The translations under genes were made by a program, and so were the position numbers. A model generated the notes under the pieces. That model searched no databases and was not told the origin of the DNA. It saw nothing but the letters and a program-made list of their open reading frames with translations. A stretch of 62,855 nt of DNA, counting the filler, from Basidiobolus ranarum (lineage: Eukaryota): assembly GCA_040143965.1 (NCBI GenBank). It is 29 parts of 29 records of this genome, joined end to end, with 100 filler letters (N's around TTAATTAATTAA, not from the genome) between each part and the next. Parts side by side here need not be neighbours in the genome. Positions count along the whole stretch, not along the records: positions 13,059 to 15,133 come from JASJQH010010696.1; 28 more parts are not named here. One strand, written 5' to 3'. How positions within the stretch are numbered: the first letter of the stretch is position 1; every line of letters begins with the position of its first letter. Of the stretch, positions 6,725-57,170 are shown piece by piece.

Positions 6725-6736
6725 GGGCTCATAACC
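6725..6736 (-). promoter_or_regulatory. Primer binding site GGTTATGAGCCC (half-tRNAiMet type)
   Basis: Directly abuts the 3' end of the LTR; complementary to the anticodon arm of initiator tRNA-Met. Confidence 0.85.
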
Positions 6737-12391: not shown

Positions 12392-12958
12392 GTTTATTGC
12401 CTTTAGATATTTGTTATTTCTATCCATATGAACCTAACTATCTTATAGATCACATGTAAGTTAGTAAAGATTACTTAGTCAAATATCACTTAGCTGCAAA
12501 TCCAAACATATATTATATATATATGTGAATAATATGAGAATTAGCAATTCCATATTGGAAATTTCAAACTTGTCCAAAATGCCCCAAACATAGCTCATTT
12601 TACTCCCACAGAAATTCTGAACACAACACAAGTGTTAGTTTTCTGTATTTCCACCAAAATGTATAAATGCTTTGTTTCCTGACAATAAAGAAATATTTCA
12701 CAAAAGCTATTTGCAACTCCCTTTTTCTAAAGTTCCTCCAAACCGCCCATATTTTCCCAATAGGTTATGAGCCCTGTGTTCTAACCTTTACATCATGACA
12801 GAAACCACTACAACCACTTATGGTAACTCAGGTGTTGAAAAGCTTGATGGAGAAAATTACAATTGCTGTAAGTTTATAATTCAAATCATGCTTGAAGACA
12901 GGGAACTTTGGGATGTAGCCTTTGGAGATGTGTCGGAACCTTCTGACCCCTCTTTATT
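12392..12958 (+). mobile_element. Copia family C: 5' LTR (to 12762), PBS GGTTATGAGCCCT (12763-12775), gag start (12795)
   Basis: LTR matches 35533-35911; gag EKLDGENYNCCKFIIQIMLEDRELWDV. Confidence 0.9.
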
Positions 12959-13058
12959 NNNNNNNNNNNNNNNNNNNNNNNNNNNNNNNNNNNNNNNNNN
13001 NNTTAATTAATTAANNNNNNNNNNNNNNNNNNNNNNNNNNNNNNNNNNNNNNNNNNNN

Positions 13059-13124
13059 GCCAGGATTTGAACCTGGGACCTCCTTCACTCTAGCAAGGTG
13101 CTCTAACCACTGCGCTACCAGTCC
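13059..13124 (-). tRNA. tRNA-like gene or tRNA-derived head, 3' end cut by the contig edge; identity uncertain (apparent AGA loop, short variable arm)
   Basis: GGACTGG-TA-GCGC-AGTGGTTA-GAGC-A-CCTTG-CTAGAGT-GAAGG-AGGTC-CCAGG-TTCAAAT-CCTGG-C: A box, B box and perfect T stem; one mismatch each in the D and anticodon stems. Confidence 0.75.
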
Positions 13125-13307
13125 TTGTATGCTATTCCTATATTGCTAGGAAACCTTAACCTAGTCTGTCAATGTATGGTACTTTGGCATGTCAGCTATA
13201 CAAGCAACTGATTGGCCTTAGACTTTATGTTCAGATGCAGTCACCATACTCCACATTTTCCTCTTTGGGAATTACTGCTTGTACCATAAGTCACCAGACT
13301 TTCAACA
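13125..13307 (-). repeat. LTR-like repeat type F (TGTTGAAAGTCTGGTGAC terminus), contiguous with the tRNA-like sequence
   Basis: Near-identical to 49964-50143 and 43285-43359; same terminus, different flanks. Confidence 0.85.
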
Positions 13308-13939
13308 ATTAATATATCAAGATCTTGCTACATCATGACAGAATGGCACAGTACTTGGCTAAGACATAACAGGTTGGCACCACAATTGGCTGATACATGC
13401 TGGGGTGGAATTGTCAAGATGCTCATGTGACCTATTTGAAAGGTTGGGATAAAATTATATGACCTTCCATGCAATTTGATGATAAGACTTTAATGTGACT
13501 TACTATGACTAACTACTGAAACATCATATGACTACTGACTGATATTGATTGATATCTAGATATCTGACAACTGATGGTACTGACAAACCTGATATATCAA
13601 TATTACTAGTTATTGCATAACCTAGGTATTACTAAAGCTGCCATGATTAATGAATTAAAACATTCTCTCAAACCAATAATGAGAAGGCTCCTCTAAGTCT
13701 TTCTTCTTTTTGCATCAATATTTGTTTGGTGCATCAATCTCTTGAGATCTGGCAACTGTGAGTCTGTCCCAATGGACTACATTTTCTGTAGGGACTGCTC
13801 TATGCATCAGTAGATGTGTGTGTAATGGGCATTTTCTGATAACTTTGAATGGTCATGTCTGCACGCACTCAAATATCTTCTTCATTTTATTTCTTTACAG
13901 TGCAAAGGTAGTGACTCATTGACTGAATACTATACTAAA

Positions 13940-14203
13940 ATAAGATGAATAGTAACTATTTATTTAGTTGCCAGTTTATTCATATTCTGATTATGTAGCA
14001 CTCAATTCTGACATTCAAAAACATGTGTTTATTGCTCTAATTGATAGAAATATCAATTAGAGCACTTTTACCAATTTTACTAGTTTTTCAAAACTTCTCC
14101 AAATCACCTGAAATTTTCACCCATGCTTTACAGGCTTGTTTGCTAAGATCTAAGCAAGTCCAATAGTTATATTTCATAGTAAACCATGAATAGGACATAT
14201 TCA
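13940..14203 (+). repeat. Copia LTR type A, partial
   Basis: Matches 14635-14890. Confidence 0.75.
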
Positions 14204-14623: not shown

Positions 14624-15133
14624 GGTTGAAACTAGGTAAATAGCAACTCATTATTTAGTAATTAGTTTATTCAAATTCTGATTGTTTAGTTCTCAGTTCT
14701 GCCCCTCAAAATGTGTGTTTATTCCTCTAATTGATAGAAATATCAGTCAGATCACTTTTACCAATTTTTCACCATTTTCTCAAAACTTCTCCAATTCACA
14801 TTAAATATTGACCCTTGCTTTACAGGCATGTTTGTTAAGATCCAAGCACTTTCAATAGTCCAGTTTTGTAGCAGATATAAATAGGACCTTTTAAATTGGA
14901 TAAAAACAAAATATCTAATGCATAGATTGAAGTCTTGTCCAAAACACTTGCAAATCCCCTAAACACTTGAGTCAGGTTATGAGCCACAAGCTAGGAGCTA
15001 AAGGAATGTCTACCAGTACTATTACCAATGTTTTTGGGTCCACAGATATGGTTGATGGTGGAGACTTTCACCTTTGGAAGTTTAAGATGCAAATAGTGTT
15101 AGAAGACAAAAATCTTTGGGGATTTGTTACAGG
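14624..15133 (+). mobile_element. Copia family A: 5' LTR (to 14974), PBS (14975-14986), gag start (15006)
   Basis: GGTTATGAGCC abuts the LTR; MSTSTITNVF...FHLWKFKMQIVLEDKNLWGFV. Confidence 0.9.
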
Positions 15134-36954: not shown

Positions 36955-37622
36955 GCCCTCATGAAATGCAACAACAGCAACCCTGCACTACAACCCTGGG
37001 TTCCCGGTCGTGCTGGTTGCCGCAGCAGCGGTAACACGAAACGCCGCGACAGTACAAATGTCAAGTCTGACCAAGAAGCTCAGCAGGGCATCAAGTGCGG
37101 CGATGTTCGCGTCCACACAGCCAACATTACTGAAATGATGCCTGTTTTCGAAGTACGACACAACAAGAGTCGATTCTTTGGAGACTATGCGGATAATGCT
37201 CCTGCCCAGTGTGCGCAGTGGGCATTGCCCGCCAAGGAGCGATATATGGGTGATTTTAACGTGAAGCCCAAGAATCCAGTCTTGGTTATTGGCAACACAC
37301 ATGATCCTGTTACGCCTTTGGTGTCGGCACGGAATGTTAGTGAGACGTTTAAGGGGAGTGTGCTACTGCAGCATGATTCCTATGGGGTATGTTTTTATTG
37401 GTTCTTTTTTTCTCTCGACAATAATGGATTGTGAGCTAACAATATGTATAGCATGACAGTTTGATGCAAGCCTCGTTGTGTACAGCTGAAGCTATTCGAT
37501 CCTACTTTGTGAATGGTACGATGCCTCAGAAGGGAACGAAATGCCCCGTGAAGGTCCCTTTGTTTTCTGAGGAGGATGGTTGGGATGAGGTGATTGCGCA
37601 GTTAGAAAGTGGATCCAACTAA
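36955..37622 (+). CDS. TAP-like alpha/beta hydrolase (Abhydrolase_4-type C-terminus), 5'-partial; intron 37387-37451
   Basis: GIKCGD, CAQW, NPVLVIGNTHDPVTPLVSA. Spliced YG|HDSLMQASLCTAEAIRSYFVNGTMPQKGTKC restores the catalytic GH. Intron GTATGT..GCTAAC..TAG. Confidence 0.85.
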
Positions 37623-43284: not shown

Positions 43285-43359
43285 TGTTGAAAGTCTGGTG
43301 ACTTGTGGTACAAGCAGTAATTCCCAAAGAGGAAAATATGGAGTATGGTGACTGCATCT
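43285..43359 (+). repeat. LTR-like repeat type F terminus inserted in CMC
   Basis: tgttgaaagtctggtgacttgtggtacaagcagtaattccc. Confidence 0.85.
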
Positions 43360-49963: not shown

Positions 49964-50143
49964 TATGCTATGCCTATATTGCTAGGGAACCTTAACCTAG
50001 TCTGTCAATGTATGGTACTTTGGCATTTCTACTATACAAGCAACTGATTGGCCTTTGACTTTGTGTTCAGATGCAGTCACCATACTCTATATTTTCCTCT
50101 TTGGGAATTACTGCTTGTACCACAAGTCATCAGACTTTCAACA
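49964..50143 (-). repeat. LTR-like repeat type F inserted in CMC ORF2
   Basis: Near-identical to 13128-13307. Confidence 0.85.
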
Positions 50144-52030: not shown

Positions 52031-52238
52031 NNNNNNNNNNNNNNNNNNNNNNNNNNNNNNNNNNNNNNNNNNNNTTAATTAATTAANNNNNNNNNNNNNN
52101 NNNNNNNNNNNNNNNNNNNNNNNNNNNNNNGGCGAGTTTCACATTCAAGTACGAATTTGGCACTATAAGAGAAGACTTCTAGGCAGGTACAGACTTTATG
52201 TTTGACGCCAATAGATCGGAGGGTGGGTGCATTTTCGC

Positions 52239-52499
52239 GTGTGGCAATGGGCGAAGCACTCAGTGAAGACTGCGGAAGGCAAGCAAGTCAATCAGCAATG
52301 GCTTTTACAGCTGTTGGACGAAGAAACCAACTCGTTGAAGAAGCAACTTGGCAACAAATACGGTAGCTTCAAATTCGATCTTGCGAAGAAGTATATGGCA
52401 GGACAGGTGACAGGGAAGGATACAGATTATGCAGACTTCTTGACTACCTTGATTTATGATGAGATCACATCGTTACCTAACAACAAACCGAAACTTTAA
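52239..52499 (+). CDS. MLS1: Malate synthase C-terminus with PTS1-like PKL, 5'-partial
   Basis: VWQWAKH.VKTAEGK...KFDLAKKYMAGQVTG...YADFLTTLIYDEI...KPKL*. Confidence 0.85.
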   Translation: MWQWAKHSVKTAEGKQVNQQWLLQLLDEETNSLKKQLGNKYGSFKFDLAKKYMAGQVTGKDTDYADFLTTLIYDEITSLPNNKPKL

Positions 52500-56461: not shown

Positions 56462-57170
56462 AGCTTCATAAATCCCTTTTTGAACCCTGATTGTGCAGCC
56501 ATTTTGACCAAAATTAAAGCTATATCCCTCAGATGTAGCATTACTCACTGATAACAAGTATTTTGCTATCCCAGGCATATATAGCACATCTTTCAATGTC
56601 CAATATATGCCCCTGAGATGCCTCCAAGATCCACTTCAATTTCTTCCACTCCCATAGCTTCTAGTTGCTAGTCATCTCCCATTTAAACCTTCTTGTTTAT
56701 GTCACTTTTAAGTGTCTTAAATCAGTTTTTTTGAGTAGAGAAATGTTGAAAGGCTCCAGAATCAATATATCACCACCTACAATCTTGTTCAGAGGTCACT
56801 GATAGGACAGAAATGAATAAAACTTCCTCTTTGGTTGAAACCTGCATTGCTTGTTCTGACTTCTCATTTTTGTTGTAATTTCTTGATTTGCAATCTTTTA
56901 ATTGGTGTCCTGGTTTGTTACAACCATATCATAAACCTGGTTTCCTTCTTTTGTAACCTTTGTACTTGCCAAAGCTATGTTTTGCAGCTCCAAAAAGATC
57001 CACTTGCTCAGATTCTTTTTCTAAATTCTGACTTCTGCGGTGTTGATCCATTAGCCTTGCCACCACAAACTTCAGAGACAACTTGTCAGTTCTTGCTTTC
57101 AAAGCTGTGACCAAGTTTGAATACTGTTATGGTAGACCACTTAGAAGAGTCATAATGATATCTTCTTCCA
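56462..57170 (-). pseudogene. Copia gag-protease remnant
   Basis: IIMTLLSGLP, YIDSGAF, DVLYMPGIAKYLLSVS. Confidence 0.85.

Follow-up and report, generated by a model that had tools for sequence, protein, structure and literature searches.

A mobile LTR-like repeat that runs into a tRNA-derived Pol III module in a probably Basidiobolus-like genome, and its probable relation to Helenus elements

In this study we describe an LTR-like mobile repeat which, in the longest of its three copies, passes directly into a tRNA-derived sequence with both internal promoter boxes of RNA polymerase III (Pol III). In this copy (copy 1) the LTR terminus TGTTGAAAG is followed by 183 nt and these in turn by the tRNA-like module, which has A and B boxes. 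By analogy with published elements we consider it rather probable that these 249 nt are, counted from the 5' end, four-fifths of the LTR of a Helenus-type element (TRIMp3), which would make them a new family of a kind that has already been published. An earlier reading of this DNA, made from the sequence only (below: the sequence-only reading), had offered, as one of two alternatives, an LTR retroelement or TRIM whose LTR has captured a tRNA-derived Pol III promoter. This proposal is the best supported one, because the anatomy matches that of fungal Helenus point by point up to the contig end, with the junction present in one copy; the copia elements of the window match as well, in LTR start and in type of primer binding site.

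If the repeat is indeed of the Helenus type, the remainder of its LTR would lie past the contig break, comprising about 25-60 nt more and ending in CA. TFIIIC and Pol III would use the A and B boxes, and the transcript would start in the 5' LTR just upstream of the module, as in the analogous cases of Cassandra and Helenus, the module acting as a promoter and not as a tRNA. Copia elements of this genome might then act in trans on the RNA, packaging it, reverse-transcribing it and integrating the product. These elements have the terminal TGTTGAAA in common with the repeat and use a GGTTATGAGCCC-type primer binding site (PBS), and 5-bp target duplications would result. An element of this kind would be expected to carry the module in every copy, to possess a second LTR, a PBS, a PPT and a TSD, to be short and to be transcribed by Pol III.

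Three copies of the repeat and their insertion boundary

The window, i.e. the whole stretch of DNA that was analysed (62,855 nucleotides), is made up of 29 contigs of 2064-2077 bp each, arranged in descending order of size and separated by linkers of the form N44-TTAATTAATTAA-N44 (for example at 12959-13058). These linkers contain stops in all six frames, and adjacency across them is artificial. The contigs are unplaced and repeat-rich, with a GC content of 32-40% per contig, and a contig break at the end of a repeat is the usual outcome for any repeat in these ~2-kb contigs.

When the 249 nt of copy 1 (13307 to 13059, minus strand) were compared by BLAST with the 29 contigs, we found three copies of a repeat starting with TGTTGAAAGTCTGGTGAC (Table 1) and, beyond these, no match longer than 22 nt. 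The search thereby bore out the claim of the sequence-only reading that a repeat with a fixed terminus occurs three times, with different flanks, and ends at a contig break each time. All three copies are truncated by contig ends: copy 2 stops at nt 75 and copy 3 stops 3 nt short of the tRNA-like start, so that the junction past nt 183 is crossed by one of the three copies only, copy 1.

Table 1. Positions of the features in the window
Feature	Positions	Strand	Remarks
Copy 1, upstream part	13125..13307	-	LTR-like repeat, nt 1-183, from TGTTGAAAGTCTGGTGAC to ...GCATACAA
Copy 2	43285..43359	+	first 75 nt; 73/75 identical to copy 1; cut by contig end; inside RepX
Copy 3	49964..50143	-	first 180 nt; 169/180 identical to copy 1; cut by contig end
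tRNA-derived module	13059..13124	-	sense orientation; begins at base 184; cut by contig end after the T arm
Pol III A box TAGCGCAGTGG	13107..13117	-	pattern T[AG]GC..AGTGG
Pol III B box GGTTCAAATCC	13063..13073	-	pattern GGTTC[AG]A..CC
copia PBS GGTTATGAGCCA	14975..14986	+	directly after LTR end ...GTCA; candidate helper family
copia PBS, further site	12763-12774	+	directly after LTR end
copia PBS, further site	6725-6736	-	directly after LTR end
RepX terminus, contig 27	57170		
RepX terminus, contig 1	979		
RepX terminus, contig 13	27455		
RepX terminus, contig 15	31779		
RepX terminus, contig 20	42927		
RepX terminus, contig 26	55220		
RepX terminus, contig 28	59313	-	

That the start of the repeat is a genuine end of a mobile element can be seen from related sequences that lack the insertion. 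In the case of copy 2, which lies inside another repeat that we call RepX, five RepX paralogues (contigs 27, 1, 28, 13 and 15) are uninterrupted through ...AAGTTTGT and on into ATCAATATC, the empty site at the insertion point reading AAGTTTGT followed by ATCAAT. With copy 3 there is one such paralogue, contig 28, to which the flank becomes homologous at position 1561 of that contig, exactly at the terminus. One end of each insertion is visible. Because insertion-free related sequences run through the site in these two copies, TGTTGAAAG is a true mobile-element terminus; the family of the TGTTGAAAGTCTGGTGAC repeat has moved, and its terminus is a genuine insertion boundary. Copies 2 and 3 are independent insertions, at different places and in opposite orientations relative to RepX. 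A purine tract was not seen upstream of any of the three copies, so that each of them is the left end either of an element or of a solo LTR.

The terminal 9-mer TGTTGAAAG occurs nine times in the window against 1.21 occurrences expected, a count reached in 0 of 100 shuffles. The copia LTRs of this DNA had been said to begin in the same way, which is correct only in a qualified sense. Five of the six other exact matches are antisense coding sequence, namely ALSTTEAE/ALSTTGAE of copia RNase H (31648, 35175 and 55062) and AVFQHM of gypsy RT (4437 and 22950), while the sixth, at 56744 on the plus strand, falls outside these five. What stands is that the LTRs of the copia family in which a PBS was found start with TGTTGAAAT or TGTTGATAT, agreeing with the 9-mer in eight of nine bases and sharing the terminal 8 nt with the TGTTGAAAGTCTGGTGAC repeat.

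The immediate host of copies 2 and 3 is RepX, and the CMC host named in the sequence-only reading is not supported. Pfam searches of RepX ORFs of at least 45 aa from contigs 27, 28, 1, 13 and 24 gave no match, and Transposase_21 was found in contig 19 only; a CMC host was rejected for these reasons. Likeness to the contig with Transposase_21 is confined to other parts of contig 20. The RepX terminus ACCCTAACAGAAATTTGAGG is sharp and is met with seven different flanks. In contig 27 RepX extends over at least 1.3 kb, and with contig 28 as its continuation it might reach about 2 kb; ACCCTAACAGAAATTTGAGGATTGT is the common terminus; several of the seven upstream flanks lie inside copia genes, the first bases of RepX hold one telomere-like CCCTAA unit, and in contig 28 RepX is inverted and rearranged.

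Outside the window nothing related to the element was found in the public collections that were scanned. A motif of the 183-nt part had 0 matches in public metagenome contigs, motifs of the window had 0 and 0 in viral contigs, and a scan of prokaryote genome contigs with a window motif returned a single locus (L002), a chance 21-mer with no further likeness. Sequence fragments of the element gave no relevant match in the full-text literature.

The tRNA-derived module and its junction with the repeat

The sequence-only reading had placed a tRNA-like part with A and B boxes and a perfect T arm about 183 bp into the longest copy, and this was confirmed. In a local scan the module matched positions 1-64 of the 71 in the Rfam tRNA family model RF00005, at 37.8 bits and with an E value of 1.3e-6, the 3' side being cut by the contig end. 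Over the whole window the score was 33.1 bits, where the gathering score is 29, and RF00005 was the sole family that reached its gathering score in this stretch. Both boxes are intact and match the conserved box A (TRGCY...YGG) and box B (GGTTC) of tRNA-derived sequences. The T stem is perfect; the D and anticodon stems have a single mismatch each. As had also been noted before, the anticodon loop contains AGA (CUAGAGU) together with a short variable region, which measures 5 nt. Ser tRNAs belong to class II and have a long variable arm. Because of the two stem mismatches, and of an AGA anticodon combined with a 5-nt variable region, the module does not appear plausible as a Ser tRNA gene. ARAGORN called 0 tRNA genes, as expected with a truncated gene.

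The same 22-nt motif of A box and D arm was observed in one metagenome locus (L001, positions 601-680), the only one there to match it. This is an unrelated SINE-like, tRNA-like sequence with a different anticodon arm and a different T arm, and ARAGORN found no tRNA in it either.

How might the tRNA-like sequence have come to lie next to the repeat? The second proposal of the sequence-only reading was a short LTR that ends in ...GCATACA and integrates beside tRNA genes, i.e. a 183-nt LTR (TGT...ACA) placed next to a tRNA gene or pseudogene by targeting of Pol III genes in the style of Ty1 and Ty3. The TGT...ACA ends of the 183-nt part would agree with this, and targeting of tRNA genes by Ty1 and Ty3 is known in yeasts. 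But the neighbour, with its two stem mismatches and its AGA anticodon in a class-I variable region, is degenerate and not a working Ser tRNA, and copies 2 and 3 were inserted into a repeat in which no tRNA is found over the ~2 kb seen. In addition, the two parts are spaced by 0-1 nt, too little to accommodate the window upstream of a tRNA gene into which tRNA-targeting elements usually integrate. Behind ...GCATACA in copy 1 we found no PBS of the GGTTATGAGCC type and no standard PBS, and therefore the 183 nt would not be the complete LTR of a 5' copy. Taken together, this proposal is disfavoured, and we regard it as very improbable.

Two further ways of placing a PBS at the repeat were tried and rejected. 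In a plus-strand reading, an LTR end CAACA would be followed by TATCA-like bases; here the flank of copy 3 is homologous to uninterrupted contig 28 sequence, and the flank of copy 1, compared by eye, fits TGGTATCAGAGC poorly. In a minus-strand reading, TGGTAGCGCAGTGG would be the PBS; here the sense tRNA model is matched over all 66 nt, and the copia elements of this genome use GGTTATGAGCC.

The main rival to an LTR with a built-in module is a tRNA-derived SINE, moved by a LINE, that is nested at position 183 of an otherwise ordinary, longer LTR, either in this copy alone or in a small subfamily. This would agree with a junction that is present in one copy only, and with the fact that the 5' end of the tRNA-like sequence coincides with the limit of the comparison between copies. 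The SINE-like locus described above has the same A-box region. Moreover, an origin of Helenus by insertion of a SINE into an LTR has been proposed by Kojima (PMC10886601), so that intermediates of just this sort must exist. On the other side, the window holds no other tRNA-like sequence in 60 kb, and no LINE-type domain was found in the 187 ORFs scanned, where contigs with RVT_1 matches also had a gypsy-type RNase H or integrase. With one tRNA-like match in 60 kb and no LINE-type domain, a dense SINE population, from which a chance hit on a 183-nt target might be expected, is therefore not evident. The sample is small and the argument is a weak one; to the same weak degree it favours a module that belongs to the LTR. 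The sense orientation of the module and its place near the expected 3' end of the LTR fit the Helenus plan, which is again a weak argument. On balance we think a nested SINE unlikely.

Even if the module is part of the LTR, the LTR might be that of a large or autonomous retrotransposon and thus fall outside Helenus as it has been defined. According to Kojima, tRNA-like parts are contained in 'not a few' LTRs of Repbase, from which only short TRIMs were retained (PMC10886601), and of our copies only 75-249 nt each are visible. A Pol III-driven LTR, however, is expected to limit the length of the transcript (PMC10886601), and the 183-nt part has no TATA[AT]A on its sense strand. A large element of this sort seems distinctly improbable to us. 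A T run, too, is absent from that strand of the 183-nt part.

Finally, the junction might be an artefact of assembly, contig 7 being a chimera in which the end of a repeat was joined to a tRNA-like sequence. The contigs are short (~2 kb), unplaced and rich in repeats, and all copies break at contig ends, which are circumstances that would favour a misjoin. But the join reproduces an architecture that has been published, which is unexpected for a random misjoin, and no shared repeat was seen at the junction. We therefore give this explanation hardly any weight.

Copia elements and the affinities of the host genome

A Helenus-type element would depend on a partner, for which the copia elements of the window are candidates. 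Directly behind LTR ends of the form ..CA or ..TA we found the PBS GGTTATGAGCC(C/A) at three sites, with 0.17 expected. This type of PBS complements the initiator tRNA's anticodon loop. Plant copia elements have a different PBS, TGGTATCAGAGC, which is unlike the GGTTATGAGCC type.

The contig that bears copy 1 (contig 7) also contains two pieces of one copia LTR family, at 13938-14203 and 14625-14974, which are ~420 bp apart. A purine-rich tract, GGGGAACTAGATGAGGG, stands before the second piece, and a PBS and the start of gag follow it. The order of these parts points to two elements in tandem, or one nested in the other, with an LTR in common.

The nature of the host can be approached from the few protein fragments of the window. 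A malate synthase fragment of 94 aa (52215-52496, plus strand) is 85% and 79% identical to two proteins of Basidiobolus meristosporus, the next matches having at most 54%. The contig with this fragment has a repeat in common with contig 20 and therefore comes from the genome that also harbours the element. We read this genome as fungal and probably Basidiobolus-like, a placement made from this one 94-aa fragment. An origin from a plant was considered and rejected: the Atlas row for the copia RT names Streptophyta, but the plant matches of this RT are 40-43% identical, against 59% for its best match, and the malate synthase is nearest to Basidiobolus. Likewise, the plant framing of the sequence-only reading, which had pointed to Cassandra, found no support; fungal Helenus is the closer known kind.

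A different picture is seen for a fragment of a TAP-like hydrolase (36955-37431, plus strand). Its best three matches, 65-79% identical, come from Hypocreales (pathogens of insects and fungi), and its top Atlas cluster is assigned to Basidiomycota, with the phylum known for two members only. Such a mixed taxonomic signal could be due to gene transfer, to uneven database coverage or to a mixed assembly.

Helenus and other Pol III-driven elements

Helenus elements are TRIMs that carry a tRNA-derived sequence in their LTRs and, together with Cassandra (5S) and Ajax, make up the TRIMp3 group (Kojima 2024, PMC10886601). They are short (311-1263 bp), non-autonomous and non-coding, with two LTRs flanking a PBS and a PPT. 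In fungi, 113 families have been described from Pucciniales and a few from Agaricomycetes; they have TSDs of 5 bp, and dependence on copia elements has been proposed. The PBS of most fungal families complements a tRNA's anticodon loop, the proposed helper copia elements having a PBS of the GGTTATGAGCCC type. The consensus LTRs start with tgttg, continue for ~50-230 nt up to a tRNA-like part in sense orientation and end in ..aca some 25-60 nt later, and the internal parts mostly begin with ggttatgagcccag. Many Helenus have an AGA or AGT 'anticodon' that conflicts with the isotype model, and they are the source of most of the 'tRNA genes' predicted as Thr-AGT, Ser-AGA and similar in rust genomes (PMC10886601).

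The repeat described here agrees with these elements in its TGTTG start, in an upstream part that lies within the published range of lengths, and in a sense module, with both boxes, placed where the 3' part of the LTR would be. It agrees as well in the degenerate 'tRNA' with an AGA anticodon and an isotype conflict, and in the presence of copia elements with a GGTTATGAGCCC-type PBS in the same genome. By eye, the T arm GAGGTCCCAGGTTCAAATCCTGG of copy 1 is identical to those printed for Helenus-4_CroRib and Helenus-16_CroRib, and TAGCgCAGTGGTTAGAGCACC differs in one of 21 bases from Helenus-6_CroRib and Helenus-15_CroRib. Such likeness is confined to motifs of the tRNA part and could stem from tRNA ancestry alone. 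The 183-nt part and the region of D arm and anticodon yielded motifs, 9-18 nt long, for which no exact match was found in the passages of Kojima's supplement that were compared (TGTTGAAAG 0, TGTTGAAAGT 0, CAGTAATTCCC 0, GCGCAGTGGTTAGAGC 0 and GAGCACCTTGCTAGAG 0), and the 183-nt part is in none of the consensus sequences given there. If the repeat is a member of Helenus, it therefore forms a new family.

The host, too, would set this family apart, being apparently Basidiobolus-like, whereas the reported range comprises Pucciniales and a small number of Agaricomycetes. All fungi in Table 1 of Kojima belong to Pucciniales or Agaricales; the underlying screen took Repbase and close relatives as its starting point and was non-exhaustive (PMC10886601). 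Thus the kind of element is already published, and the Basidiobolus-like lineage would possibly be new for it. We put forward, as a tentative proposal that is somewhat less than an even bet, that a Helenus-type TRIM with a Pol III promoter is active in an early-diverging, Basidiobolus-like fungus (Zoopagomycota), with a T arm letter-identical to that of some rust families and a copia helper of the same kind (TGTTGA terminus, anticodon-loop iMet PBS). If this were true, the partnership between copia and Helenus might have a much older origin in fungi, or the element might have been transferred horizontally, or the same type of tRNA module might have been captured repeatedly by convergence. A confirmed element would be the second system in fungi for studying how an LTR retrotransposon can have a Pol III transcript as its genome. 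Such elements are also of practical concern: they inflate predictions of tRNA genes (PMC10886601), and they break short-read assemblies, as has happened here.

Other systems are similar to the repeat in part. In tRNA-derived SINEs (SINE2), too, A and B boxes lie in a head that is a degenerate tRNA. They start at this head, though, and are moved by LINEs, whereas the proven terminus of our repeat lies 183 nt upstream of the tRNA-like sequence and no LINE was seen in the window. With Ty3/sigma and Ty1/delta, the end of an LTR is found beside a working tRNA gene of the host that is situated outside the element. In contrast, the tRNA-like sequence described here is degenerate and abuts the repeat without a spacer.

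Cassandra, a TRIM of plants, resembles the repeat in that the module of a small-RNA gene with an internal Pol III promoter is contained in the LTR of a non-autonomous element. It differs in that its module is derived from 5S and has a type 1 promoter, in its plant hosts and in its independent origin (PMC10886601). The Ajax TRIM of nemerteans has the TRIMp3 concept in common with the repeat and differs by a partial, 5S-derived module and by its animal hosts (PMC10886601). Next to Cassandra, Helenus and Ajax, the repeat, if confirmed, would add one more fungal lineage to those whose LTR retrotransposons are driven by a captured Pol III promoter.
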